Assembly: GCF_016127575.1 (NCBI RefSeq)
Contig: NZ_CP066019.1
Span: 2,280,001-2,312,000, forward strand
DNA length: 32,000 nt
Reading direction: 5' to 3'
Source of the DNA: Cupriavidus necator
GTDB taxonomy: Bacteria > Pseudomonadota > Gammaproteobacteria > Burkholderiales > Burkholderiaceae
Positions 13,567 through 31,558 of this stretch are shown here, one piece after another. The notes beneath the pieces are model-generated. The model saw nothing but the letters and a program-made list of their open reading frames with translations. It did not search any database and was not told the DNA's origin. How positions within the stretch are numbered: position 1 is the stretch's first letter; each line of letters starts with the position of its first letter. A program made the translations under genes and the position numbers.

Positions 13567-14165
13567 CCGGACCGGGCTCCCTTGTCGCCAGGGCGGCGCC
13601 AGGCCAGGCGCTCGGCGCAGCGCAGTTGCCGTTCGAGCCACGCTTGCGTGTGGCCGGAATCCGGAGAACGGTCGCGTAGCCAACAGCCAAAGGTGGAAAG
13701 GAAGATTCCGGTCAGCACGACCTCGCCCAATTCGCGGCGCCAGCCGGATTCGGGCAGGCGCGCCGATTCCCGCAGCCATTGCACGGTGCGGCTGATATGC
13801 AGCAGGCCCTGCACCTGCAGATGCACGTGCTCCGGCTGCAGCTTGTAGCGCAGCATCTGGGCGGTGAGCTGCCGGTGCGGGGCCAGCGCCTCGAGCCAGG
13901 CGAGGATGGCCTGCTCCAGGCGCTCGCGGTGGGACAGGGCGGCCCAGCCTTCACGCGAGGAAGCGCGCACGAGCGCAAGGTCGGCCCGCTCGAACCAGGC
14001 CTCGGCCAGGTCGTCCTTCTGCCGGTAATGCCGATGGATCTGGTCCAGGCCGATGCCCATGTCGTCGGCAACGTCATGCAGGTGCAGGGCATCCCAGCCG
14101 CTGCGCTCGCCCAGCATCAGGGCAACCTCCAGGATCCGGCCTGCCAGGGCTGCGTCAGCGTTCAT
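13542..14165 (-). CDS. TetR/AcrR-family transcriptional regulator
   Basis: This is ORF 13542..14213, trimmed to the ATG at 14165. It reads MNADAALAGRILEVALMLGERSGWDALHLHDVADDMGIGLDQIHRHYRQKDDLAEAWF, a TetR-type N-terminal HTH. Its 3' end overlaps the hydrolase start by 25 nt. It is divergent from the 14443 gene. Confidence 0.75.
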   Translation of the reverse strand: MNADAALAGRILEVALMLGERSGWDALHLHDVADDMGIGLDQIHRHYRQKDDLAEAWFERADLALVRASSREGWAALSHRERLEQAILAWLEALAPHRQLTAQMLRYKLQPEHVHLQVQGLLHISRTVQWLRESARLPESGWRRELGEVVLTGIFLSTFGCWLRDRSPDSGHTQAWLERQLRCAERLAWRRPGDKGARSGWTRSPMP

Positions 14166-14442
14166 GGCTTTGCCATCCTCGGGAATGCGCGTCCGCGCTC
14201 TACCTTCCAGCATAGAGAGGCAACCCGTACGCGGGCGCGGATTTCATTGTCATGTGCACGATGCTGCCGGATCGGCGTGCAGTCGGGGCTTGCCCGCCTG
14301 TGCCCGGTTCGGCACCTGCCTCGACAATTTCCGCACGCAGCCTATCTTTAGGGTGTCAGTCCAGGCGTCATCGACAAGGGCCGCCGTGCCAGCCAGCACT
14401 CGGCGGCGGCCGCGGTGTCGCGTGGACAGAGGCCGTACGCGC

Positions 14443-17289
<2,847 letters not shown>

Positions 17290-19209: not shown

Positions 19210-20440
19210 CACTGCTTGATTTCACAATCCGGAAGCTATGCGCCCCTGAATCGTTTTTTTCGGCTGTTGGGCGCCCGTTTCCGGCATTCTTGGCCCGCTT
19301 ACTGCAACTGCGGACGGATTTTTCCCAGCGAACGCATGCGCACGAGGTGTAGGCGGCCATGCTCAGCACGAACATCTAGTCGCCTCGCTTCAGTCCGCGC
19401 ACCATCACCTGGCGCATGCGCCCGACCGTCTTGACCCAGCCGAAGCCTTGCTCGATCAGCTTGCGCTTTTGCTGCGAGATGGCATATCCCTCGCTGCGGG
19501 CAATGGCATCAGGAACCGCCGAGCGCCGACCCGAGGTGTTTTGCGCCACATGCGGCGTCACCTTCATCTCCAGGCAGGCTTGAATGAACTCCTGCGCGTC
19601 GTAGCCTTTATCCGCGCCCACGGTGACTTCCACATTCAGATCTTCAGTCACCTGCCTGGCATCGTTGATGCATGACCTTCGCGGGCCTCGCGCTCGGCGT
19701 GTCCGTCCGCATTGGTCACCATGGCGCTCACCACCAGGCCGTGGCGGTTGTCGCTCAGGGTATAGCCCATGTAGCGCAGTTCACTCGCAGTCTTGCCCTT
19801 GCGGTACAGCCTGGCATCGGGATCGGTCTTGGACTCGTGCGTGTCGTTGCTGCGCTTGCGACCCTTGAAGTTACCGCCGTCGTTATCGTCCTTGTCACCG
19901 CCGTCCTTGCGCACAAAGCTCTTGTGGCCTGCCCACGCCTGAATCAGCGTGCCGTCGACGCTGAAGTGCTCCCCCGACAGCCAGTTCTTCTTCTGCGCGA
20001 TAGCCAGCACCTCGTTGAAGAACTCGATCACAGCATCATGCTTAGTCAGCCGTTCGCGGTTCTTGGTGAAGACCGTTGGCACGCAAACTGGGGCGTCCAT
20101 CTATAGCCCGATGAACCAGCGAAACAGCAGGTTGTACTGCGTCTGCTCCATCAATTGACGTTCGGAGCGGATGCTGTAGAGCACCTGCAGCAGCATGGCG
20201 CGCAGCAACTTCTCCGGCGCGATGCTAGGCCGGCCACCCTTGATGTCGGCCTCGTACATCTGCGCGAACAACCGGTCCATCTTCACCAGCGCCTGGTTGG
20301 CCATGGTTCGGATCGAGCGCAGCGGGTGCGACTTCGGCACGAAATCATCCAGACGCCGCATGGTGAACAAACTTTCGGTGAAGGTGTCTCCGCCGCGCAT
20401 GAATGTGGGGTTGGATGGGGTCCTCAAATCAACGCTTCAG
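19210..20440 (-). mobile_element. Degraded IS5-family insertion sequence; boundaries are approximate
   Basis: It encloses the broken transposase described in the next entry. The only terminal inverted match I found by hand is weak: gcttgatttcacaatcc at 19214-19230 against the reverse complement of 20417-20435, gcgttgatttgaggacccc. No target-site duplication was identified. Confidence 0.6.
19299..20400 (-). pseudogene. IS5-family DDE transposase, inactivated by two in-frame TAG stops and two frameshifts
   Basis: Four consecutive pieces make up the frame.
- 20400-20104: MRGGDTFTESLFTMRRLDDFVPKSHPLRSIR...RPSIAPEKLLRAMLLQVLYSIRSERQLMEQTQYNLLFRWFIGL, the InsH-type N-terminus.
- An in-frame TAG lies at 20101-20103, followed immediately by MDAPVCVPTVFTKNRERL...HFSVDGTLIQAWA.
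- A frameshift near 19650 leads into VGADKGYDAQEFI...QKRKLIEQGFGWVKTVGRMRQVMVRGLKR.
- A second TAG lies at 19376-19378.
- Restoring 1 nt near 19340 gives the usual C-terminus AAYNLVRMRSLGKIRPQLQ, with its stop at 19299-19301. Confidence 0.8.
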
Positions 20441-20716
20441 CCAGTTGTCACGCTGACGTCCGCTGGAGGTATTTCAGCGACCTGTTAATCCTTGCTTCAA
20501 CAATTTCATCCTATCCATACCTTGTGGCAAATCATTTTGTCGCCCCACTAATGTATCGGATATGCCGTCCATCGATCATGGATAACATTGTGGTTCTGAT
20601 AGCCCGTTGGTCGGGGGCAGGCTGATTGCCGTGACTCAATTCCACAGGGCCTACCGGGTTCGACACGTTACTGATTCGAGGGCGCGGCGTCAGCTTGCGG
20701 CCCCTTCGTATGTCTT

Positions 20717-21112
20717 TCACGGACTGCCAACATGCCCGTAAGTAATGCTCTCGATGCGAATCCAATCACATGAGAATGCCAACGTAGTTTGATTTTTGCA
20801 TACAAACCGCACAGATACTGATTCTTCCATATCCTCCCATTCGAACTTGTCGATGATGTTCTCATGCCCCCAGTGGCTGAAGGACAAGCAGCTCAAGCCG
20901 ACAAATGATAGCTTAATATGAACCACGTCATAGTTCTTGGGCCATCGGTCAGGGCAAGATTTTGGCTTCTCTTCAGTTATAAGCTTGACCGATAGCCGCG
21001 GCTCATCGCGCTTGACATGGACGTCAGAAAGTTCAGATCCACTAAGTGACGGAAACTCACCATATATGGAAATCATGGCTTTGGGATTCATTAACCTCGC
21101 AGTTGTCTTCAT
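20717..21112 (-). CDS. Putative cognate immunity protein of the Rhs C-terminal toxin (Imm50-like pattern, family unverified)
   Basis: This 131-aa ORF starts within the Rhs stop: the ATGA at 21109-21112 implies translational coupling. Its GC is about 40-50% by hand count of sample lines. The sequence is ...ISIYGEFPSLSGSELSDVHVKRDEPRLSVKLITEEKPKSCPDRWPKNYDVVHIKLSFVGLSCLSFSHWGHENIIDKFEW...VSVRF...LAFSCDWIRIESIT. It resembles my memory of Imm50-family members. The position is the canonical immunity slot of polymorphic toxin loci. Confidence 0.7.
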   Translation of the reverse strand: MKTTARLMNPKAMISIYGEFPSLSGSELSDVHVKRDEPRLSVKLITEEKPKSCPDRWPKNYDVVHIKLSFVGLSCLSFSHWGHENIIDKFEWEDMEESVSVRFVCKNQTTLAFSCDWIRIESITYGHVGSP

Positions 21113-24100
21113 TTCTTATTCCGGCAATTGAAATGGTAATGATCGTCCATACCATCGACTTTGCCCGTCCGAGTATTGTCTTCGGGGCGTACATTATGGT
21201 GCGACGGCTGGTCGCCAACACCTCCTTCATTGTAGTAGTGCCCTGCCGAGTGGTCTTGAATAATCACATTCTTCCCATTCAACTGATAGGTCAACTCTCT
21301 GGTCATGATCGGGTGCTTGTCGTTGCCGAGGATCCAAGCACCGCTTGAGTCAGTTAATGGAACCATTTTCTGACTTGTTGGTTGCTGAGACATTGGAATG
21401 CCAAGCTGTCGCCGAACTTCTCTCAGACTAGCGCGCCGCGTCTGACTGCATGCCAGCCCGAGCGGATCAACCCAGCTTATCGGGTTCGGCGCGTACTGAT
21501 TCAGGTTCAGCCCGCCAGCCAGCCCGATAGGGTCTTTGGAGACGAAGCGCCCGGTTCCCGGATCATAATACCGGTGCCGGTTGTAGTGCAGCCCATTCTC
21601 GTGATCGTAATACTGCCCCTGGAAGCGCAGCGGATTCTGGATGCCGGCCTTCCTCGCGGCGTTCGAGATTGCCTCCTGCGCGGCGCCCCATGCCTTGTAC
21701 TGCGCGCTCCACGCCAGCTCGCCCGCCTCGTCGGTCAGTTCCTGCGGCGTGCCCAGGTGGTCGCATTGATACCAGGCCAGCGCCTCGAACGGCTGCGGCG
21801 CAATCTCGCGGGTCCACAGCGGATCGTCGTCCAGGTCGTAGTCGCCCTCCCAGGCGGGTTCAGGCAGCAGGTCGATGGCCTCGCGCCGCACCGCCTGCGC
21901 CAGCGGCACCAAACTGCCCGGCTCGTACAGGTAGTGCGTGGTGCGCTCCGCACCCGGTATTATCCGGAAGTGGTCGCCGACACCGGCCTCGGGTTCCTGG
22001 CGGCTCTCCCACGCAAGTTGGTCACCGTCCCAGCCATACAGCGTGAAGGCGCAGCCGTATTCCTGGTTCAGCCGTGCCCGCTCGTTGCGCCGGTAGATTT
22101 CGCCGTCATTCTGATTCTCGAAGTAGTTGGCCGATGACGACTTGGACAGCCGCCGCCCAAGTGCGTCGTACCGGTAACGCACCTCCACCTTCGGATTGTG
22201 CCAGCCCACCAGCCGGTTGAAGGCATCCCAGGCGAAGCGCTCATGGACACCGTTGACCACGCGCAAACTCAGGTTGCCGCGCTCGTCCCACTCGTAGTGG
22301 GTACCGGCGTACTGCTTGAGCAGGTTGTCCACCAGCTTCGGGCGGCCTTGCAGGCGGCTGTGGAACTCGGGCCGGCCACGGGCCGGGTCGGCTTTGAATA
22401 CGCGCGTGTCGGGGTCGTGCAGCAGATTGCCCGCCGGGTCGAAGTCAAAGGTTTCCACCCCGAGCGCGCTGTTGGCCTCCAGCAGGCGCCCCACCGGATC
22501 GTAGCGGTATTGCAGCGTGCCGCGCCGCAGGTCGCGGATGCTGGACAGTTGCCCCGCCGCATCGTATTGGTACTCGCGGCGCAGCATGCGCTGGCCCGCA
22601 TGGGCGCCCTCGACGTGTGAAAGCGTCTGCTCCAGGAGGCGTCCCGCGGGGTCGTACACCTGCGACTGCGCCAGCCGGTTGCCCTGCGTGCGGGCAATGT
22701 CCCGGTGCAGGTTGTCGCGCTCGAACTGCACCAACTCCCGGTCGTCCAGCATCACGCCGTGCACATGGCCCGAGCCGTAGGTAAGCACGCCCACGCGGTG
22801 CCCGTCCGGGCGAACGGTGGCGATGCGCTGGTTCAGCGCGTCGTATTCGTGCCGCCACACGGCCACCAGCGGCTCCTTCAGGCAGCGGTAGTGCTGGTGC
22901 TCGCGTACCACATTGCCCGCTGCATCGTGGAACCATTGCAGGCGGCTGTCGGCGTTTTCGGCCAGGATCAGGCGCCCGTTGCCGTTATAGGCGAAGGTTT
23001 CCGTCAGTACATGCGGCACCCGGTTGTCGGCGTCAATCAGCCCCGCACGGCGGCGCGTGAGGCGACCCATGGCGTCAAAGACGAAATCCGTCATCAGTTG
23101 GCCCGAGTCCACCGTCCAATCCAGCAAGCCGCTTGCCGGGTCGTAGTTGTACTCGGTCGTCTTGCCGTCGAAACCGCTCTCGCGCAGCAGGCGCCCCACC
23201 GGGTCGTACTGGAATTCGGTGCTGGCGCTGTTCTCGTTGGTGAGCGTGGCCAGCCGTCCCAGCCGGTCCCACCGGTAGCCGAGCGTCTGGCCGGCGGCGT
23301 CGGTGCGCTCGGCAATCAGACCGACCTCGTTATAGCGCCAGGCGGTGCGGCGGTGCAGCGCATCGGTGTGCACCAGCAGCCGCCCCTCGGCGTCGCGCTC
23401 GAAGCGCTCCACCCGCTGGTCGGGATGGGTAACGCTGGCGAGCTGCCCGGCCTCGTAGTGGTACTGGGTGGCATTGCCCGCCGCATCGGTGAACCTGACC
23501 AGTTCCCCGCGCTCGCCGTACTTCCAGGCGCTGGTCTTGCCCGAGCAGTCGGTGTAGCTGGCCAGCTGTCCGGTGGCGGTGAAGGCGAGCTGCTTCTTGC
23601 CGCCCTTGGCATCGGTGATCTCCACCGGCAAGCCCGACTTGTTGTAGGCGTATGCTGTCTTGTGCCCGAGCGGATCGATTTCCTCGGTCAGGTTGCCCTT
23701 GATATCGTAATCGCGCAGCCACAGCCCGCCCTCGGCGTCGCGGATCTTGATGAGCTGGTCCTTATCATCCCAGGCGTAGTGCACCACGCTGTCGTCGGGG
23801 CGGATGTGTTCGACCAGATTGCCGCGCTCGTCGTAGGCATAGCGATCGACCGCGCCATCGGTGTGCACATGCTTGACCACGTTCTTGGCGTGGTCGCGGA
23901 AGAACCACTCCGACAAGCCATCCGGGTGCTGGATGCGATAGGTGTAGCCGAGAATGTCGTAGTAATGCCAGGTCTCGTTGCCATGGGCATCGGTAACGTA
24001 GGTCAGCCGGATGTTCTCGTCCCACTCCAGGCGGGTATCGAAACTACCATCGTCGGCCCATTCGCGCACGGCCCTGGCGTCCGGGCCGTCACCTTGCCAC

Positions 24101-25866
24101 TGCAGGTTCATGCCGCGCCCGGTGCGGTCGGTATAGCGCGTGACGAGATGGTGCTGATAGGTGTACTCCCAATGCGCGGCGTTCTCGTCCTGCGCCATGG
24201 TGAGGTCGCCCGCATCGTCGTAGGTGTAGCGGGAAAGCTGGCGCACCAGCTTGCTGTCTGCGATCTGCCACAACTCGGCAATGCGGCCCTTGGCATCCGG
24301 GCGCACACCAACGTGGGCGAAGACGGTCTCGCCCTGATAAGCGATCACGTCCGACAGCACGGTGTCGCCGTCAATGCGGTGGTCGTAGTGCAGCGCGACA
24401 CCTGCACCGCTTCTAAGCGTAATGCCGGTCAGGCGGAAGCGCTGACCATGGCGCCGGTAGGTTTCCTGGCTCTCGAAGCCGCGCGCCAGCGTCAGGCCGT
24501 TCTCCGACACCCGCACCAGCGTCACGTTATCGATGGGGTCGTGGTGGAACTTGCCCACCGCCGGCAGCGGGTAGTCGTGGCTGCGCCCGTCGGCGGCATG
24601 GTAGCGCAGCGCTTCCTGGCCCTCCTTGCGTATCACATCAAAGCGCGTGGTGTACGGCGTGATCCAGCGCGCGCCCTGTTCACCGCCGTCATAGGCGCCC
24701 AGGCTGGAGCGGTAGGTGCGCGCCCAGTCGATGGGGAACAGCCCCGGCAAGACAAAATCGGTGTGCGACAGCGTTTCGTCGCCCATTGCAAAACTGATGC
24801 TGTTGGTGCTGCCCGCCGGCGCGGGACAGTTCTTGCAGCGGGGGCTGGCCTTGGCCGGCGCCTGGTGGCTGCTCACCTCCAGTTCGCCTTCGTGGCCGGT
24901 CTTGCGGGCCTGGCTGGTTTGCTTCGGGTGGACGTTGGCGGCCTGATGGTTGCCTTTCCTCTTGCGCCAGGCAGCCACCGCCTGGACCAGCATCGACAGC
25001 AGCCAGCCAATGCTGTGCTGTAGCCTCGGGTCGGCGAGCCTGGTCATCTGCGCGCGCAGCACGGGCCCCATGGTCCGCAACTGGCCGACATGGGCCACCA
25101 CCGTCTGCCGGATTTCGGCCGGCATGCCAACCTTGACCGCCGTGTTGACAACGGCCTTGCCAGCGGCCTTGTAGGCGTTCCAGGTAGCGTTCAAGAAGTT
25201 GCCAATGGCCTTCTTGGGATCATGCAGGAGTTGGCTGGCACCTTCTCGTGCCTGGCTGACCGCTGTTTGCGCATTGCCGGCAGCGTTGAGCTTGCCCAGC
25301 GCCACCTTCTCCAGGCCGCCGGCGACCTCCAGCACCATCTTCTCGCCCAGCACCCCGGCATCATTGAGAATGGTGGCGAGCTTGGCCTGCGCCTTGGCCA
25401 CGAAGTCATCGATCTCACCGATGATGGTGGCGTTCAGGTGCCCGACCAGCACCTCGATGATCCCATCCCCCAGCGCGGCCTTGGCCGCCTGGCGTAGCTC
25501 CTGGCGCACCAGCGCCAGCGTCGGGCGCAGGCTCATCCTCGCGGCGGCCATGGTCGGCGGCGCGGGCAACACGCCGATCAGGTTGATGCCCAGGCTCACC
25601 CAGTCCAGGAAGTTCTGCGACTTGGTGCGTACCAGCGTGACGACATCGCCCAAGGCGTCGACCAGCGCGATAATGTTGCCCACCACCGGCAGGCTGCCCG
25701 CCACGGTCTTGATGCGCTCCAGCGTCACGAGGCCGCCGCTGGCGCTTTGCAGCCAGGCGTCGAACCTGGCGGCGCCCTTGCCGATGTCCTCGAGCGCGAT
25801 GGTGTTCAGGGGCGCGACGGCGGTTTGCGGCTCGCGCGGCTTTGCTGCGGGTGTAGGTTCAGCCAT
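21109..25866 (-). CDS. Rhs-family T6SS effector with an unassigned N-terminal domain, a YD-repeat shell and a 114-aa C-terminal toxin tail
   Basis: This is a 1585-aa ORF. Residues from about 355 read ISFAMGDETLSHTDFVLPGLFPIDWARTYRS, the Rhs N-terminal plug region. Many YD repeats follow (YTYDDAGDL, YAYDERGNL, YRWDRLGRL, YQYDAAGQL, YRYDPVGRL). The RHS core end reads YYDHENGLHYNRHRYYDPGTGRFVSKDPIGLAGGLNLNQYAPNPISWVDPLGL, and its last codon ends at 21454. The variable tail is encoded at 21112-21453. Confidence 0.95.
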   Translation of the reverse strand: MAEPTPAAKPREPQTAVAPLNTIALEDIGKGAARFDAWLQSASGGLVTLERIKTVAGSLPVVGNIIALVDALGDVVTLVRTKSQNFLDWVSLGINLIGVLPAPPTMAAARMSLRPTLALVRQELRQAAKAALGDGIIEVLVGHLNATIIGEIDDFVAKAQAKLATILNDAGVLGEKMVLEVAGGLEKVALGKLNAAGNAQTAVSQAREGASQLLHDPKKAIGNFLNATWNAYKAAGKAVVNTAVKVGMPAEIRQTVVAHVGQLRTMGPVLRAQMTRLADPRLQHSIGWLLSMLVQAVAAWRKRKGNHQAANVHPKQTSQARKTGHEGELEVSSHQAPAKASPRCKNCPAPAGSTNSISFAMGDETLSHTDFVLPGLFPIDWARTYRSSLGAYDGGEQGARWITPYTTRFDVIRKEGQEALRYHAADGRSHDYPLPAVGKFHHDPIDNVTLVRVSENGLTLARGFESQETYRRHGQRFRLTGITLRSGAGVALHYDHRIDGDTVLSDVIAYQGETVFAHVGVRPDAKGRIAELWQIADSKLVRQLSRYTYDDAGDLTMAQDENAAHWEYTYQHHLVTRYTDRTGRGMNLQWQGDGPDARAVREWADDGSFDTRLEWDENIRLTYVTDAHGNETWHYYDILGYTYRIQHPDGLSEWFFRDHAKNVVKHVHTDGAVDRYAYDERGNLVEHIRPDDSVVHYAWDDKDQLIKIRDAEGGLWLRDYDIKGNLTEEIDPLGHKTAYAYNKSGLPVEITDAKGGKKQLAFTATGQLASYTDCSGKTSAWKYGERGELVRFTDAAGNATQYHYEAGQLASVTHPDQRVERFERDAEGRLLVHTDALHRRTAWRYNEVGLIAERTDAAGQTLGYRWDRLGRLATLTNENSASTEFQYDPVGRLLRESGFDGKTTEYNYDPASGLLDWTVDSGQLMTDFVFDAMGRLTRRRAGLIDADNRVPHVLTETFAYNGNGRLILAENADSRLQWFHDAAGNVVREHQHYRCLKEPLVAVWRHEYDALNQRIATVRPDGHRVGVLTYGSGHVHGVMLDDRELVQFERDNLHRDIARTQGNRLAQSQVYDPAGRLLEQTLSHVEGAHAGQRMLRREYQYDAAGQLSSIRDLRRGTLQYRYDPVGRLLEANSALGVETFDFDPAGNLLHDPDTRVFKADPARGRPEFHSRLQGRPKLVDNLLKQYAGTHYEWDERGNLSLRVVNGVHERFAWDAFNRLVGWHNPKVEVRYRYDALGRRLSKSSSANYFENQNDGEIYRRNERARLNQEYGCAFTLYGWDGDQLAWESRQEPEAGVGDHFRIIPGAERTTHYLYEPGSLVPLAQAVRREAIDLLPEPAWEGDYDLDDDPLWTREIAPQPFEALAWYQCDHLGTPQELTDEAGELAWSAQYKAWGAAQEAISNAARKAGIQNPLRFQGQYYDHENGLHYNRHRYYDPGTGRFVSKDPIGLAGGLNLNQYAPNPISWVDPLGLACSQTRRASLREVRRQLGIPMSQQPTSQKMVPLTDSSGAWILGNDKHPIMTRELTYQLNGKNVIIQDHSAGHYYNEGGVGDQPSHHNVRPEDNTRTGKVDGMDDHYHFNCRNKK

Positions 25867-25907
25867 AGGTCAAGTCAAGGATTGTTCGTATTCTTGGCTC
25901 GATGTGC

Positions 25908-28862
25908 TCAGACAAAGCCGGGCACGCGCATCGTGGTCTGCGTGGGATGCGGGCTGGCCTTGGCAAGCGTCGGCGTGCCTGCGGTTGGCATGGCCTCGCC
26001 CAGCAGGCTCTGCGCACCGGACAGGCCCAGGCCAACCAAGCCGGCAGGACCGGCCTTGACCGCGCCGGCCACTTGTTGCGCCAGTTGCAGTGCCTGGGTG
26101 GCCTGTCCAGCGGCTGCCAGCACCTGGCTTGCCATGGCGCCGGCGGCGGTGCCGACAGCAATGCCTGAAGCCTGCGTCAGCGCGCCTGCGCCGTCGGCCG
26201 ATGCGCCGGCCGGCGGCCAGGTTGGCTTGGCGACATAGCTGCCCTCGGCCCAGGTATCGGTCGGGTCCTTACCAAAGCTGACCCTGGCCGGGCCCGGTGC
26301 GATGCCGCTAACCGCCGCGAAGCCCTTGGTGTCGAGCTTGCCAGTGGTGACCTTGCCCAAGGCGTCCTCGACCGTGAAGTCGCCACCATCGATACCCAAG
26401 CGGTTGGCGTAGTGATTGAACAGTTCGAGATTGCCCTTGCCGGGCTTGGGCGGCTCGGGGAACTGCGCGACATACTTCTGCGCACTGGTGAAGGTATAGC
26501 TGGCCGCGTGGATGGTGTATGGGCCGCTCGTCTTGTGGGTGATGCCGCCCGCGTTGTAGATGGTGGCGCTGCCACCGCCCGCCACCACCAGTTCCTCCTT
26601 GGCCGACAGCGTGATGCGGTTGGCCGTGGCCGTGACGTTCAGCTTCGCCAGCAGGTTGATGCTGTCCTGCAGCGCGCGCAGGTCGATGTCGCCCCCGGCG
26701 GCGACCAGCCGCCAGCCCATGCTCTGGATGAAGATGCGCACGCCCCGGCTTACGCTCGCCAGCAGGCGCTGCCCGATGGCGAGGCTCGTGTGCCCGGCGC
26801 TGGTGAAGGCCAGGTGCTCTCCAGCGGCGAAGTGGGTCGAGCGCGCGGTACTGGCCTCGATGCCGGCCGGGCTAGCCAGTACCAGGTGGGGCGCGGCCAG
26901 TTCTGGGAAGTCGCCGGTCTCGGCGTTGGCGGTACCATTGCCCCGGATGTCGTCGTTCTGCGCCTTGATGATCTTCGCGACCTCGGCTTGGTCGGTGCAC
27001 TCTTGCGCGTCGTGTTCCTGCGCCAGTTCCGCCAGCGTCTCCTGCTGGTCACGCGCCACCGTGAGGCGCTGCACCGTCTCGCCCATGTCCTTGTGGTGGG
27101 CACTGGCGTTGGCGCGGGGCTCGGTGGTAAGCAGCATGCCATTGGCACGCACCACGCCCTGCGCGTCGGAGCGCAGCTCGAAGCCTTCGCCACGCTTGTC
27201 CTTGCGGCCACTGCCGCGGATGATGCGAGTGAGGAAGCCCAGCCCCAGCCACGAGGTCTGGTGGTCACTCTGCAGCTGGGTCTGGATCTGTCCTTCGCTG
27301 GCGTCCTGCACAAAGGTATTGGTGCGATTCCCGTGCACCTCCTTGCTGACGAAGCCCGACAGCGCGTGGAACTCCGGTAGCGGCCACTGCGGCATGTTCA
27401 GCTTGTTGGGCACGCTGCCGGTCACGATAGGGCAATCCGGATCGCCGTTCAGGTGCTCGACCATCACCTCCTGACCGATGCGCGGCACGTGCACGGCGCC
27501 GAAACGCTCGCCCTGCCAGGACGAGGCCACCCGCACCCAGCATGAGCTATTGGCGTCGCGCTTGCCTTGCCGGTCCCAGTGCAGCTGAATACGGATGCGC
27601 CCGTACTCATCGGTCCACGTTTCCTGGCCCTCTGGACCGACCACGGTGGCGGTCTGCGGCCCGTGGGCGCGCGGCTTGGGCTGGGTGCGCTCGGGGCGGA
27701 ACAGTTCGTTGGACGGCTGGGCGGTGAATGCCACCTCGCAGCGCCACGGCTGGCTGCCGCCCGACGCTTCCGGTACGTCCTCGATCAGCAGGTGCGTGCC
27801 GAGAATGATGTATTCGCGGTTGGCCTTGGGCTGGATGAAGTTCGCCAGCGTGAAGGTGCAGCCGGGCACCATGGCGCGCACATTCCCGCGCCCGCTGGCG
27901 CGGCTGCCATGCTGGCGCAGCGCTTCCATGCGCTGCCGGGCCACCTGGTCGCCTTCCTTCCACGGGTCGTTGCCGGTGGCCGGCTGGCTGTGGTCGCCAG
28001 GGAACTCGTAGATTTCCTGGCCGGCGTGCGCGGTGTCGAGTGGATCAGCAGCGCGTACCGTCAAGTCGGCCCGCGTCTTGACGAAATCGTAGTCGGAACT
28101 GGTCCACTGGCCCGACACCAGCCGGTCGTGCAGCTCGAACTCATGGAGGTGTTCCTCGTCGATGCGGTCGGACGAGCGTGCCCAGCGGATCGAATGGTAG
28201 GCGGAGCTGGCAAACGGGGCAAAGGCGCCGTTGCCGTCGGTCAGCACCAGCCGGTGCTTGCCCTCGCTGTGTTCGATGTGCCAGGAAATCCCCCATTCTT
28301 GAGTGAGGCGCTGGAAGAAGTCGAAATCGCTCTCGCCATACTGGACCTGGTATTCGCGTTTGGGGTAGCGCGCCACGTCCAGGCGCCGCTCGACCGGGAA
28401 GGTATAGTCCGAGAGCAGCGTGTCGAGGATTTCGACGGCGCTTTGCTGCTGGAAAATGCGGAAGTCCTTGGTCAGTGTCGCCAGCCACAGCCAGGGGCGC
28501 AGGGTGAGGCGATAGACAATCTGGTGACCGACTGCAATGGGGCCTCGCACATCGGTGACCATGCCCGTGATTTCTCGCGTGCCCGCGCCGACACCGCCCG
28601 CCATTCCGGTGCCCATGCCGTCGAGCTGAATCGTGACGGTCAGCTCCTGGCCGCGCAGCGCCTTCGTATCGAGGTCCGCCGCCGGGCCGAACAGCGCTTG
28701 GCGGTCGTCCGGCGTCTTCAGCTCCAACTCGTATTCGAACAGTTCGCACAAGCGCTCGGTGCCAGACAGCTTGGAAAGCACCAACGCGGGCTGCCCCATC
28801 AATTCGGGCAGGCCATTGCCCTTGACAGTGACGGTACGAGAGGAAAGCGATCGGCTGCCCAT
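25908..28862 (-). CDS. vgrG: Type VI secretion spike protein VgrG with a C-terminal extension
   Basis: This is ORF 25908..28910, trimmed to the ATG at 28862. It reads MGSRSLSSRTVTVKGNGLPELMGQPALVLSKLSGTERLCELFEYELELKTP..., the gp27-like region. ...CWVRVASSWQGERFGAVHVPRIGQEVMVEHLNGDPDCPIVTGSVPN is the gp5 OB-fold. DUF2345-type beta-helix repeats follow, then about 184 extra residues. The gene ends 41 nt upstream of the rhs start. Confidence 0.95.
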   Translation of the reverse strand: MGSRSLSSRTVTVKGNGLPELMGQPALVLSKLSGTERLCELFEYELELKTPDDRQALFGPAADLDTKALRGQELTVTIQLDGMGTGMAGGVGAGTREITGMVTDVRGPIAVGHQIVYRLTLRPWLWLATLTKDFRIFQQQSAVEILDTLLSDYTFPVERRLDVARYPKREYQVQYGESDFDFFQRLTQEWGISWHIEHSEGKHRLVLTDGNGAFAPFASSAYHSIRWARSSDRIDEEHLHEFELHDRLVSGQWTSSDYDFVKTRADLTVRAADPLDTAHAGQEIYEFPGDHSQPATGNDPWKEGDQVARQRMEALRQHGSRASGRGNVRAMVPGCTFTLANFIQPKANREYIILGTHLLIEDVPEASGGSQPWRCEVAFTAQPSNELFRPERTQPKPRAHGPQTATVVGPEGQETWTDEYGRIRIQLHWDRQGKRDANSSCWVRVASSWQGERFGAVHVPRIGQEVMVEHLNGDPDCPIVTGSVPNKLNMPQWPLPEFHALSGFVSKEVHGNRTNTFVQDASEGQIQTQLQSDHQTSWLGLGFLTRIIRGSGRKDKRGEGFELRSDAQGVVRANGMLLTTEPRANASAHHKDMGETVQRLTVARDQQETLAELAQEHDAQECTDQAEVAKIIKAQNDDIRGNGTANAETGDFPELAAPHLVLASPAGIEASTARSTHFAAGEHLAFTSAGHTSLAIGQRLLASVSRGVRIFIQSMGWRLVAAGGDIDLRALQDSINLLAKLNVTATANRITLSAKEELVVAGGGSATIYNAGGITHKTSGPYTIHAASYTFTSAQKYVAQFPEPPKPGKGNLELFNHYANRLGIDGGDFTVEDALGKVTTGKLDTKGFAAVSGIAPGPARVSFGKDPTDTWAEGSYVAKPTWPPAGASADGAGALTQASGIAVGTAAGAMASQVLAAAGQATQALQLAQQVAGAVKAGPAGLVGLGLSGAQSLLGEAMPTAGTPTLAKASPHPTQTTMRVPGFV

Positions 28863-28948
28863 GCAAACACGCTCCGTGAGAATGGATTGGTGACTGCCAC
28901 AGGCAGCCAATGGCTAGCTATTTTGCGGGGCGATCGCTGCGCCCGCAC

Positions 28949-28962
28949 TTGATGCGCATCAA
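28949..28962. promoter_or_regulatory. Perfect 14-bp palindrome TTGATGCGCATCAA upstream of vgrG, a candidate operator
   Basis: The palindrome was read directly and lies 87-100 nt upstream of the vgrG ATG (28862). It sits at the edge of the AT-rich block 28960-29060. Confidence 0.4.
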
Positions 28963-29060
28963 TACGCCTTTTATATGGAAGTGGAGTCCAGCCGGATATC
29001 GGACGTTTCCTATAAATGAATGCGATCTATTTAAATCAGAATTAAAAAAAATCTGAGTTT

Positions 29061-29273
29061 TCAGGCGGGATTTTCGTTGGCTGGTATGAGCGGACAGGCC
29101 GGCGCGCGTGAGTCTCCCGCGATGCCATGACGATTTCTTGCAATGGAGGTTACGCGGTCAGTGTGTGCCACCAGCGCGCCTGCGTCGTACTTGGCGTCGC
29201 TGGCGAGCGAGTTGTCGATGGTGGTGAGAGCGTAGGGGGGAGCACACCAACGGTATGCCGGAACCAGTGGCAT
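29061..29273 (-). CDS. Small hypothetical ORF of 70 aa, either a gene or a gene remnant
   Basis: This is an ATG-initiated ORF between the second TonB-dependent receptor and the vgrG promoter. The central part (YALTTIDNSLASDAKYDAGALVAHTDRV) has host-like GC-rich third positions. I see no recognisable family and no obvious Shine-Dalgarno sequence. Confidence 0.25.
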   Translation of the reverse strand: MPLVPAYRWCAPPYALTTIDNSLASDAKYDAGALVAHTDRVTSIARNRHGIAGDSRAPACPLIPANENPA

Positions 29274-29359
29274 TAGCCCGCTCTGAGGGATACAGGACAG
29301 CTTTGCCAGCCTGACGGCATAGAGTCCTGATCCGCAGGCTGACCGCTATCCGGCGCGCC

Positions 29360-31558
29360 TCAAAGGGCAGCGCGCAGCCCCAGGAAGAAGCGCCGCCCCG
29401 GCGCGGGTTCGAAATACCGCCCGTTGGCCTCGTTGACGATCACCGAGCCGATATAGCGCCGGTCGGTGAGGTTGTCGATGCGGCCGAAGACGTAGAGCCG
29501 GGTCGGGCCGATGCGGAACTCATAGCCGGCGCGCAGGTTGAACACCGCATAGCCTGGCGCGGCCTGCGTGTTGAGATCATCGGCGTAGACGCGGCTGTCC
29601 ACGCGCATCTCTGCCCCCAGCGTCAGCGGCGCAGCCGGCCGCCATGACAAGTCCGCGCCCAGGCTGTGGCGCGCGGTGCCGGGCAGGCGCTTGCCGGCCG
29701 CCACGGTCTGGCCCTGCGCGTTGACGAAGCTGTCGCCAAAGTAAGCATCGAGCCAGGTATAGGCCAGTCCTGCCTCGATACGGCTGCCGCCGCCCTTGCC
29801 CGGCGTGCCCACCTCACCGAGAAAGCCGCCGCGCCAGCCCAGTTCGAAGCCGCGCCGGTGCACGCCGCTGACATTCTGGTAGACGGTGCGCCCGGCATTG
29901 TTCGATTGGGGCACCACCTCGTCGTGGCTGTCGGCATCGAACAGCGCCGCCTCCAGCCGCTGCCCCGCCGCCTGCCACTTGATGCCGATCTCGCCCTGGC
30001 GGCTGGTGGAGGCCTGCAGCCCCAGGTTGCTGCCTACGCCGCCGGGTCCGTAGGCGACTTCGGTCAGCGTCGGGGTCTCGAAGCCGCGGCCGAGGTTGGC
30101 GTAGACGTTGAGGGAATCGAGCGCGTGCCACACCACGCCAAGCACGGGGCTGACGTTGCTGTAGGTCGCGCTGCCACTGTCATCGGGGCTGGCCGCATTG
30201 ATGAAGTGGTCGTCAATGCCAAGCCGCACCCGGCTGGCGCGCACGCCGCCCACCAGTTGCCAGGCCGGGTGGAAGGTCCAGTCGAACTGCGCAAACGCGC
30301 CGAGGTCGGTCGCGGTATTGGTCTCGTCGCGGCGCAGCGCGCCCTGCGTGCCGTTCTGGTTGACGTAGCCGTTGCGGCCATCGCGCATGCCGTTGGCTTC
30401 GAGCCCGGCGCTCCACAGCAGCGGCAGGCCGGCGGCGGTGGCGGTGCGCCGGCTCCATGACAGCGCGGCGCCGCCGTAGGTGCGGTCCAGGTCGACGATG
30501 CCGCCGGCCGAATTCGGCGCGGCTCCGCTGAAGCCCAGCCGCTGGTACAGGTTGCGCGTGCCGCCGTACAGGCGTGCCGACACGCTGTCGGTCCCGGTCA
30601 GCTGGTGGTCCACCACCACGCCGGCCTGGGTCTGCTCGACGTTCTTGCCGGTATCGAACTGGGTCGCCGCGGACACCGCCTGGCGCGGATTGGCATCGGC
30701 CTGCGCGCGCGTTAGCCCCAGCGGGTCCTGCGCCAGCGGCTGGTTGAAATAGTTGAACTGGCCGGTCACGCGCGTGCCGCTCGCCGGCTGCGCCACTACC
30801 TTGGCATTGAGCTGGTAGCGGCGCGCCGCGCTGTGGTCGCGGTAGCCGTCGGTCTGGTAGGTCCAGGCGTCGAGCGAGCCGCCGAGCCGGTCGTTGCCGC
30901 CGGCCAGCGCGATGCCCGCCTGCCACTGGCCATCGGAGCCGAAGCCCGTCGACGCGCGCCCGCTGAAGCCGTCCTTGGGCGGATCGGGCGTGAACACCTG
31001 CACCACGCCGCCCGACGCATTGCCATACATCTGCGCAAACGGGCCGCGCAGCACCTCGACCCGGCTGGCGTTGGCAAGGTCGGCAGTGGAAGCCTGGCCC
31101 TGCCCGTCCGGCATGGTGGCCGGGATGCCGTCGACATACAGGCGCACGCCGCGCACGCCGAAGGTGGAGCGCGTGCCAAAGCCACGCACCGCCAGTTGCA
31201 GGTCCTGCGAGTAGTTCTGCCGGTCGCGCACCGCCACGCCCGGCACGCCGGCCAGCACCTCGGACAGGTTCACCAGCGGCGTGGCGCTGCGCAGCGGATC
31301 GACCGGCACGCTGTCCACCGCCGCCGGCGCGTCAAAGCGGCGCTGCTCGCTGCGGGTGGCGCTGACCACCACGTCGGGCAGCGTTTCGGCGGTGGCGGCG
31401 GCCACTGCCGTGCCGGGCGGGTCGGCGGCACGCGCGCCGGCGCTGGCCAGGACCAGCGCGGCGAACGCCAGCGCGGAGCGGTTCGCGAACGGGATGCGGG
31501 GGATACCGGAACGGCGCTGCTGCCGGACCGCCAAAATCTGCCTGCCGCCTGGTTTCAT
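29360..31558 (-). CDS. TonB-dependent outer-membrane receptor
   Basis: This is ORF 29360..31732, trimmed to the ATG at 31558. It reads MKPGGRQILAVRQQRRSGIPRIPFANRSALAFAALVLASAGARA (signal peptide). The TonB-box and plug region reads TLPDVVVSATRSEQRRFDAPAAVDSV...VRDRQNYSQDLQLAVRGFG...GVRLYVDGIPATMPDGQGQ...VEVLRGPFAQMYGNASGGVVQVFT. The barrel ends with NLTDRRYIG...YFEPAPGRRFFLGLRAAL. Confidence 0.9.
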   Translation of the reverse strand: MKPGGRQILAVRQQRRSGIPRIPFANRSALAFAALVLASAGARAADPPGTAVAAATAETLPDVVVSATRSEQRRFDAPAAVDSVPVDPLRSATPLVNLSEVLAGVPGVAVRDRQNYSQDLQLAVRGFGTRSTFGVRGVRLYVDGIPATMPDGQGQASTADLANASRVEVLRGPFAQMYGNASGGVVQVFTPDPPKDGFSGRASTGFGSDGQWQAGIALAGGNDRLGGSLDAWTYQTDGYRDHSAARRYQLNAKVVAQPASGTRVTGQFNYFNQPLAQDPLGLTRAQADANPRQAVSAATQFDTGKNVEQTQAGVVVDHQLTGTDSVSARLYGGTRNLYQRLGFSGAAPNSAGGIVDLDRTYGGAALSWSRRTATAAGLPLLWSAGLEANGMRDGRNGYVNQNGTQGALRRDETNTATDLGAFAQFDWTFHPAWQLVGGVRASRVRLGIDDHFINAASPDDSGSATYSNVSPVLGVVWHALDSLNVYANLGRGFETPTLTEVAYGPGGVGSNLGLQASTSRQGEIGIKWQAAGQRLEAALFDADSHDEVVPQSNNAGRTVYQNVSGVHRRGFELGWRGGFLGEVGTPGKGGGSRIEAGLAYTWLDAYFGDSFVNAQGQTVAAGKRLPGTARHSLGADLSWRPAAPLTLGAEMRVDSRVYADDLNTQAAPGYAVFNLRAGYEFRIGPTRLYVFGRIDNLTDRRYIGSVIVNEANGRYFEPAPGRRFFLGLRAAL

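Follow-up and report, generated by a model that had tools for sequence, protein, structure and literature searches.

Results and discussion

Organization of the locus

We observed in the analysed stretch of Cupriavidus necator DNA (hereinafter the window, 32,000 nt) three neighboring genes on the reverse strand, which code for a VgrG spike protein, an Rhs protein and a small protein of the Imm50 family, with all three open reading frames uninterrupted across about 8.2 kb (Table 1). The vgrG gene lies upstream of rhs on the same strand and is separated from it by 41 bp, an arrangement that fits the T6SS delivery suggested by the initial annotation. Translation of vgrG may in fact begin downstream of the TTG listed as its start, and the product bears at its C-terminus an extension of about 190 aa that matches no family. 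No gene for a DUF4123 or Eag/DUF1795 chaperone was found, there being nothing between vgrG and rhs and the neighboring genes being unrelated; likewise, the window contains no T6SS core genes. The T6SS1 of C. necator is active. Outside the cassette that the immunity gene forms with the Rhs tail, and about 230 bp past its downstream end, lies an IS5-family element with 88-92% identity to Cupriavidus IS5 copies in BLAST searches; its extent was taken from BLAST because an inverted-repeat search for its ends returned no clear terminal repeats. We treat this element as context.

Table 1. Coordinates of the features in the window
Feature	Position	Strand	Description and basis
vgrG (T6SS spike)	25908..28910	-	Pfam Phage_GPD, Phage_base_V, T6SS_Vgr, DUF2345; TIGR03361, 444 bits
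Rhs effector gene, full length, intact	21109..25866	-	1585 aa + stop; ORF list, Pfam
N-terminal region of Rhs, aa 1-347	24826..25866	-	Pfam, BLASTP, hydropathy
Rhs/YD-repeat shell and Rhs-associated core	21454..24825	-	closes ...D1445PIGL...WVD1467PLGL1471; Pfam, NCBIfam
Toxin tail, aa 1472-1585, 114 aa	21112..21453	-	sequence, Pfam, model
PF15657 Tox-HNH-EHHH span, tail 41-108, Rhs aa 1512-1579	21130..21333	-	Pfam
ATGA stop/start overlap (toxin/immunity coupling)	21109..21112	-	sequence
Imm50-family immunity gene, 131 aa	20717..21112	-	Pfam, BLAST, model
IS5-family (ISRme1-like) element, broken transposase	19220..20490	-	DUF772, DDE_Tnp_1; three consecutive ORFs

The Rhs gene is probably H16_B2107 of C. 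necator H16. Pfam searches with its product recovered 14 RHS_repeat units, RHS, DUF6531 and a terminal Tox-HNH-EHHH domain but no PAAR domain, and residues 1390-1471 match the NCBIfam model Rhs_assc_core (TIGR03696). The N-terminal region matches no Pfam family; hydropathy indicates a hydrophobic segment around aa 54-80, and the region ends at a putative TseI-like N-terminal cleavage motif, CKNC347/P348...G362-D363-E364. The initial annotation had placed the end of the Rhs core at WVDPLGL, the last Leu codon of which we locate at 21456-21454, and the 114-codon tail, with the sequence exactly as quoted there, begins directly after DPLGL, i.e. past the end of the Rhs-associated core. The downstream 131-codon frame is joined to the Rhs frame by the ATGA at 21112-21109, whose ATG takes its A from the end of the terminal Lys codon and its TG from the TGA stop codon. 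All coordinates given in the initial annotation were confirmed, and its view of these elements as an Rhs C-terminal toxin tip plus an immunity gene in translational coupling with it is supported.

The toxin tail belongs to the Tox-HNH-EHHH family

The tail opens with a conserved linker helix, RRASLREVRRQLGIPMSQQP, which is followed by a domain matching PF15657 with 87.5 bits (cut-off 25; E = 7.6e-25) over profile positions 2-69 of 69. All the family-conserved residues are retained, namely Q66, D67, H68, H72, G78, G80, H85, N87, R89, P90 and H105, among which D67-H68, H85 (with N87) and H105 are invariant or at least 90% conserved across 25 close relatives and a profile of 147 diverse representatives. 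In Rhs protein numbering, the [ED]H motif is D1538-H1539, and the other motif residues are H1543, H1556, N1558 and H1576. The tail is basic (pI 9.0). The family comprises 452 clusters at 50% identity, and in all 150 representatives the domain is C-terminal, on carriers that include Rhs, PT-HINT, DUF6443 and LysM proteins.

This family assignment supports the earlier placement of the tail among polymorphic toxins of the HNH/EndoVII type. The S-H-H codons noted at 21204-21196 are indeed present, but not every histidine of this triplet and of the distal HxH belongs to the conserved set: H85 and H105 are conserved, whereas H86 and H107 are variable, most relatives having F/L and Y, respectively, at these positions of the family alignment. 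PF15657 was the sole family recovered for the tail at E <= 1, with no match to Tox-SHH (PF15652) or AHH (PF14412); the proposed kinship to the SHH/AHH-type toxins is therefore rejected in favor of the EHHH clade.

The published assignment of Tox-HNH-EHHH to the HNH/EndoVII fold derives from sequence profiles. An AlphaFold2 model of the tail (pLDDT 82.2) has strands at 50-58, 61-68 and 85-90 and no helix after the strands. Foldseek searches of PDB and BFVD with this model returned nothing at E <= 0.001, the best match being the TnsE C-terminal domain (E = 0.63), though so small a motif may be missed by such a comparison. Sequence searches of the PDB with the tail, both as a single sequence and as a family profile, yielded chance matches only.

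The downstream gene codes for an Imm50 protein

The product of the downstream gene matches PF15594 (Imm50) with 147 bits (cut-off 27.1; E = 3.3e-43) over profile positions 1-117 of 118, and all 63 of the relatives that we found carry this domain. Its counterpart in C. necator H16, H16_B2106, shows 100% identity and is annotated as a protein of 124 aa starting at Met8 of the 131-aa frame; as its relatives are mostly 131 aa long, the annotated start is probably 7 codons too short. The protein is mildly acidic (pI 6.2), and hydropathy analysis indicated no transmembrane or hydrophobic segment or signal peptide, so that it is predicted to be cytoplasmic. Its AlphaFold2 model (pLDDT 87.8) is mostly beta, with one helix and eight strands; a small, mostly-beta, cytoplasmic protein is what has been described for Imm50 (Zhang et al. 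2012, PMC3482391).

The association with EHHH toxins recurs in other genomes: at 9 of 12 other loci with Imm50 relatives, an EHHH domain is found directly upstream, abutting the Imm50 start. Of the remaining three, one (L008) is an Imm50 gene upstream of which no EHHH domain was detected, and two (L011, L012) are immunity fragments. The abutting toxin/immunity geometry of the C. necator locus recurs at loci L002, L003, L004, L006 and L010.

Comparison with TseI

TseI of Aeromonas dhakensis SSU is a characterised Rhs-EHHH effector of the T6SS that acts as a DNase in vitro, this activity being abolished by the H1497A and HFH1507-1509AAA substitutions; it is cut after L1433 by D1407 and D1429, requires the DUF4123 chaperone TecI, whose gene is sited between vgrG1 and tseI, and is followed by tsiI, the start of which overlaps the toxin stop (Pei et al. 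2020, PMC7170923). The C. necator Rhs protein resembles it in several respects. Both are T6SS Rhs effectors encoded after vgrG, and both are PAAR-less, with an N-terminal domain of no known family followed by a C/P...G(E/D)E motif, a putative cleavage site in the C. necator protein. In a BLASTP alignment of the N-termini, C347/P348 pairs with C420/P421 of TseI, and G362-D363-E364 with G427-E428-E429, with an 8-residue insertion and an E to D replacement in the C. necator protein. In both, the YD shell closes in DPxGL and contains a matching pair of aspartates at a spacing of 22 residues, D1445 and D1467 corresponding to the TseI autoprotease residues D1407 and D1429, and the C-terminal PF15657 domain comes after a common RRxSxR...GIPxSxQ linker. 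Finally, the immunity start overlaps the toxin stop in both loci.

Beyond the linker, however, divergence between the toxin cores precludes an alignment. The VIRC translation of TseI scores 43.5 bits against PF15657, as opposed to the 87.5 bits of the C. necator tail, and attempts to align the TseI catalytic core to the tail with BLASTP, with hhalign and with two HMMs, one narrow and one of 147 members, gave a significant alignment for the linker helix only. A MAFFT alignment places the TseI histidines differently, and the first His is separated from the second by a loop of 17 residues in the C. necator tail versus 10 in TseI. Residues were therefore mapped by motif correspondence, equating 'GPHFH' of TseI with the consensus 'gpHfN'. 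TsiI, with 154 aa, is unrelated to the 131-aa Imm50 protein, to which it shows no similarity in BLASTP, and it matches no Pfam family. A TecI-type DUF4123 gene is present at the tseI locus, whereas the C. necator locus has none in its 41-bp vgrG-rhs gap. As an observation apart, the C. necator Rhs carrier represents a PAAR-less and chaperone-less variant of the TseI-like type.

Base composition and origin of the cassette

The tail and the immunity gene together have a GC content of 48.2% (50.3% and 46.2%, respectively), as against 66.0% in the Rhs body and 66.5% in the whole window. Relative to 737-bp windows elsewhere in the window this amounts to a z of -5.6, and GC3 falls from 0.855 in the Rhs body to 0.54 and 0.53 in the two parts of the cassette. 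The compositional foreignness reported earlier is thus borne out, although the Rhs shell, put at about 70% GC, measures slightly lower at 66%. The fall in GC starts within about 40 nt past the DPLGL codons, and DNA similarity to the Rhs cores of other replicons ends at about 21464. A megablast search with positions 20500-23000 against plasmids and secondary replicons, aimed at finding the same core bearing other tips, gave no more than short matches to the core, at about 78% identity. The low GC of the cassette is also seen in other hosts. Recombination at the core/tip junction is usual for Rhs elements. We propose that the tip and immunity gene were gained as a cassette by recombination at this conserved junction, which would account for their low GC.

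Proposed function and alternative interpretations

We posit that the locus codes for a standard polymorphic-toxin module carried by a T6SS Rhs effector of C. necator H16, with a DNase tail and an Imm50 immunity protein, an interpretation that we regard as very probable. As the gene order suggests, the Rhs protein would be loaded on the VgrG encoded by the adjoining upstream gene and fired by a T6SS. An aspartyl autoprotease comprising D1445 and D1467 would then cut after L1471 and free the 114-aa tail within or from the YD shell, as indicated by the conservation of these residues with TseI, in which such autoproteolysis has been shown. In the cytoplasm of the target cell the basic tail would act on DNA as a metal-dependent endonuclease by means of D1538-H1539, H1556/N1558 and H1576, a prediction that draws on family membership and the mutagenesis of TseI. 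In the producer, the cytoplasmic Imm50 protein would bind and block the tail, conserved gene linkage being the one line of evidence that points to this step.

The initial annotation had left the pair without a family and considered that it might be undescribed. NCBIfam has no model that matches either protein, neither has a solved relative detectable by sequence, and the toxin model has no structural neighbor, all of which would be expected of a divergent or undescribed toxin/immunity family. Against this, the profile searches proposed at that time have now been run with both proteins and gave confident, full-length matches to the curated Pfam models PF15657 and PF15594, at 3.5 and 5.4 times the respective gathering scores. 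Moreover, relatives 60-86% (toxin) and 35-77% (immunity) identical to the pair already bear the NCBI names 'HNH/endonuclease VII fold putative polymorphic toxin' and 'immunity 50 family protein', and the precomputed public annotation of the C. necator locus carries both Pfam families. The family pairing itself has been in print since 2012: Zhang et al. (PMC3482391) defined Tox-EHHH, with the motif [ED]H, H, H, and Imm50, and listed Imm8 and Imm50 as its immunity partners on carriers with RHS repeats and T6SS association. Bicistrons of Rhs-Tox-HNH-EHHH and Imm50 have likewise been catalogued in Salmonella SPI-6 (PMC10469887), both descriptions being computational. The C. necator module agrees with these pairs in its toxin and immunity families, in being carried by an Rhs protein, in its bicistronic layout and in the predicted delivery by a T6SS; it displays no structural difference from them, and the copy is a betaproteobacterial one on a PAAR-less Rhs. 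The idea of an undescribed family, to which we attach a negligible probability, is already refuted by the profile matches, the published pairing and the public annotation, and the low-GC tip with its downstream gene is, by sequence, an ordinary pair from two catalogued families. Only the toxin family has an experimentally characterised member, since a literature search for an experimental test of any Imm50 protein found none.

Of the functional alternatives, one accepts the families but holds that the substrate is not DNA, the tail being an RNase or a dual DNase/RNase. A review table of His-Me finger toxins gives RNase activity for YobL (LHH) and YqcG (GH-E), and DNase/RNase activity for Tke2 and Tke4; TseI is only a distant kin of the C. 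necator tail, and the His-Me fold of the latter is an assignment without a structural match in PDB or BFVD. Nevertheless, the sole tested member of PF15657, TseI, degrades plasmid DNA and is inactivated by mutation of its motif (PMC7170923), and the conserved motif residues of the tail are of the same class, which makes a substrate other than DNA quite improbable. Somewhat less improbable, though still unlikely, is that the module is intact but belongs to a silent vgrG-rhs island that is neither loaded on nor expressed with the T6SS of the strain. T6SS core genes, a PAAR domain and an adaptor or chaperone gene are all absent from the window, the degenerate IS5 copy lies close by, and a consensus promoter/terminator scan of 20300-29400 returned no promoter-like site upstream on the coding strand. 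Such a scan misses some promoter types, however, and the three reading frames have remained intact with all conserved catalytic and autoprotease residues retained. Furthermore, accessory vgrG-effector islands apart from the core cluster are the norm in T6SSs.

The locus adds another Rhs-EHHH/Imm50 module to hundreds, is already labelled in public databases and has little import beyond annotation. No publication on H16_B2106, H16_B2107 or H16_B2108 emerged from a literature search. C. necator H16 is a model organism amenable to genetics, though, and the pair is clean and intact, so that it could supply the experimental test of an Imm50 protein and the first structure of a PF15657 domain.

A structural lead from the immunity protein

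Searches of the PDB by sequence with the Imm50 protein, its family profile and a broadened 33-member profile yielded chance matches only. In contrast, the sole notable neighbor of its model in a Foldseek search of the PDB is chain E of 8owu (E = 1.6e-3, probability 1.00), with TM scores of 0.51/0.58 over 119 columns. This entry is the DNase-immunity complex PT7(Bc)/PIM7(Bc) of Bacillus cereus, in which PT7, a small DNase of the polymorphic-toxin kind that depends on metal, has its active site occluded by the immunity protein (Nachmias et al., bioRxiv 10.1101/2021.10.19.465003). The profile searches having found only chance matches in the PDB, PIM7 is not detectable as an Imm50 protein by sequence; the PT7 carriers are LXG/T7SS proteins, as opposed to Rhs for the C. 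necator toxin, and the model of the latter does not match PT7. The likeness to chain E, which may be the immunity chain, is a structural lead and not evidence of membership.

As the Imm50 model resembles only this chain and the toxin model matches no solved nuclease, it is conceivable, if a long shot, that Tox-HNH-EHHH is not a canonical beta-beta-alpha-metal finger and has its small-DNase architecture and immunity mode in common with the 'novel-fold' PT7/PIM7 pair. Were this so, a structure of the C. necator pair would join two polymorphic-toxin families now held to be unrelated and would also be the first experimental validation of Imm50.

Assignment of the Rhs tail and its downstream partner

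In Pfam scans, the tail of the Rhs protein matches PF15657 (Tox-HNH-EHHH) with 87.5 bits (cut-off 25, E = 7.6e-25) and the downstream ORF matches PF15594 (Imm50) with 147 bits (cut-off 27.1, E = 3.3e-43), the whole model being covered in both cases. The initial annotation had proposed an HNH-type Rhs toxin/immunity cassette delivered by T6SS, a general idea borne out by these families and the vgrG-rhs-immunity gene order, and had placed the core end, the 114-codon tail, the 131-codon ORF and the ATGA overlap exactly where ORF and sequence checks find them. The confident matches of both proteins refute its suggestion that the family is unassigned or undescribed. The likeness it drew to the SHH/AHH types is likewise ruled out: the Pfam scan found no Tox-SHH or AHH match to the tail, and hence the clade is EHHH.

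Modules of this kind are already catalogued, and public data label the locus accordingly: precomputed annotation assigns the 1585-aa product to PF15657 and the small product to PF15594. Between the immunity ORF and H16_B2106 of Cupriavidus necator H16 the identity is 100%, which places the window on chromosome 2 of that strain; the same locus is present in assemblies from several sequencing runs. Tox-EHHH was defined as 'HNH/EndoVII fold; [ED]H, H, H', with Imm8 and the 'mostly beta' Imm50 as immunity partners, RHS and FilH repeats as carriers, and T6SS among its delivery routes (Zhang et al. 2012, PMC3482391). Tox-HNH-EHHH is group 25 of the 2017 His-Me finger classification, and a 2023 survey of Salmonella SPI-6 recorded several Rhs-Tox-HNH-EHHH effectors that are followed by Imm50 genes (PMC10469887).

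In the Rhs body, Pfam recognizes DUF6531, 14 RHS repeats and the RHS core. The core terminates in ...NPISWVDPLGL, whose final Leu codon occupies 21456-21454; this Leu is residue 1471, where the match to the NCBIfam Rhs-associated core model also ends. The immunity ATG takes its A from the end of the tail's final Lys codon and its TG from the TGA stop.

Features of the cassette and its surroundings
Feature	Position	Strand	Basis or content
VgrG	25908-28910	minus	
Rhs ORF, 1585 aa	21109-25866	minus	ORF call, domain matches
Rhs aa 1-347	24826-25866	minus	
Toxin tail, 114 codons, then TGA	21453-21112	minus	ORF reading
ATGA overlap, toxin stop/immunity start	21112-21109	minus	sequence reading
Immunity ORF, 131 codons	20717-21112	minus	ORF reading
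IS5-family (ISRme1-like) element	~19220-20490	minus	88-92% identity to copies on other Cupriavidus replicons
1078-aa ORF	14053-17289	plus	phosphopantetheine-binding, AMP-binding and C-terminal acyltransferase domains

Comparison with TseI/TsiI and structure models

TseI of Aeromonas dhakensis, given likewise in a review, is a characterised T6SS effector of the Rhs type, and plasmid DNA is degraded by its PF15657 domain; activity and toxicity are lost in the H1497A and HFH1507-1509AAA mutants, self-cleavage occurs after C420 and after L1433, and the toxin is neutralised by TsiI, the start codon of which lies across the stop of the toxin gene (PMC7170923). Using translations of the paper's supplementary sequences, we found that the TseI tail matches PF15657 with 43.5 bits, and that TsiI matches no Pfam family and shows no sequence similarity to the immunity ORF in the window; the two pairs have the toxin family in common but differ in the immunity family. 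The linker RRxSxR...GIPxSxQ is significantly shared by both tails, but their catalytic cores are too diverged for a statistically supported alignment. The consensus of 147 diverse family representatives is IQDHsaGH...gpHfNvRP...eHYpF. By motif correspondence, TseI H1497 would map to tail H68 (Rhs H1539) and H1507-F-H1509 to tail H85-H86-N87 (Rhs H1556-N1558), with tail H105 (Rhs H1576) as the third motif histidine. Tail H86 and H107, which the initial annotation emphasised, both vary in family alignments.

The AlphaFold2 model of the Imm50 ORF (pLDDT 87.8) has one helix and eight strands, and among its PDB neighbours only 8owu chain E is notable (E = 1.6e-3, TM 0.51/0.58). The 8owu entry is the Bacillus cereus polymorphic toxin-immunity complex PT7-PIM7, where the immunity protein occludes the active site of the toxin, a small, metal-dependent DNase called 'novel-fold'. 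We found no sequence link between Imm50 and 8owu; the likeness of the model suggests that Imm50 and PIM7 may be remotely linked. Foldseek returned no significant neighbour of the toxin model (pLDDT 82.2) in PDB or BFVD, which its poor performance with very small motifs is enough to explain; hence, the His-Me finger fold of PF15657 is still based on published profile analyses and TseI mutagenesis.

Breadth, linkage and composition of the cassette

At 60-86% identity, the tail has close relatives in Burkholderia, C. metallidurans, Pseudomonas and Acinetobacter, among others, and many of these relatives are carried by short orphan fragments. Clustered at 50% identity, the matches of an exhaustive profile search form 452 EHHH clusters, of which 328 have E <= 1e-10; in carriers of ~100 to >3400 aa, the domain is invariably C-terminal. 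The sampled carriers, namely Rhs, PT-HINT, DUF6443 and LysM proteins, all match PF15657. The Imm50 search yielded 63 relatives, mostly of 131 aa and named 'immunity 50 family protein' by NCBI. Scanning one genome per species, with an HMM made from our own alignment for upstream EHHH domains, we observed such a domain directly upstream of, and ending at, the Imm50 start in 9 of the 12 loci encoding Imm50 relatives. The H16 copy is in the minority joined to an intact Rhs. In most other genomes (loci L001, L002, L003, L004, L006 and L010) the pair lies on short ORF segments of 118-453 aa beginning at an internal stop; these resemble orphaned C-terminal pieces of Rhs more than complete rhs genes.

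The cassette is compositionally foreign, as initially annotated, with 48.2% GC where the Rhs body has 66.0% and the whole window 66.5% (z = -5.6 against same-size windows elsewhere in it) and a GC3 of 0.54 against 0.855 in the Rhs body. The fall sets in a few tens of bases past the DPLGL codons, DNA similarity of this Rhs to Rhs cores on other replicons reaches ~21464 and ceases there, and cassette GC lies below its flanks in all eight hosts measured. Family spread, Imm50 linkage, low GC and the similarity break together make up the classic pattern of exchangeable Rhs tips.

Delivery and proposed mechanism

The gene order, with vgrG, a 41-bp gap, rhs and the overlapping immunity gene, supports T6SS delivery of the Rhs protein, and an active T6SS1 has been reported for C. 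necator. Family membership by sequence, intact motifs, gene linkage and composition are observed directly. The autoprotease aspartates D1445 and D1467 are present and spaced as in TseI; hence, release of the tail after L1471 by Rhs autoproteolysis would be expected. We posit that the freed tail would act as a cytoplasmic DNase, to which the Imm50 protein would give immunity by binding. The basic tail (pI 9.0) and the mildly acidic Imm50 protein, which bears no export signal, fit a cytoplasmic nuclease and its inhibitor.

In residues 1-347 of the Rhs protein Pfam detects neither a PAAR domain nor any other family. This region has a hydrophobic stretch (~aa 54-80) and ends at a putative TseI-like self-cleavage motif, CKNC347|P348...G362-D363-E364, with an insertion relative to TseI. 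Between vgrG and rhs there is no gene for an adaptor or chaperone, unlike in Aeromonas, where tecI codes for the DUF4123 chaperone of TseI. VgrG carries a ~190-aa, Ala/Gly/Pro-rich C-terminal extension past DUF2345 (aa ~810-1000), which has no family match and might be a docking site of the PAAR-less Rhs.

Neighbouring features and the immunity start codon

The 1078-aa ORF encodes a lipid-modifying enzyme of the NRPS-like kind and has no connection with the cassette; the long ORFs opposite it have no family matches and are probably spurious. The IS5 element lies ~230 bp downstream of the immunity gene, with the low-GC tract extending to its edge, and its transposase is broken into three ORFs, by a frameshift near 19650 and by an in-frame stop (20101-20103).

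The annotated H16_B2106 begins at Met8 and has 124 aa, which leaves out 21092-21112 (minus). Most Imm50 relatives have 131 aa and a start codon that overlaps the stop of the toxin gene, and in one (P0035) position 8 is Leu; the 131-aa model is therefore probably correct; nevertheless, given a GAGG 3 nt upstream of the Met8 ATG, both starts may be in use.
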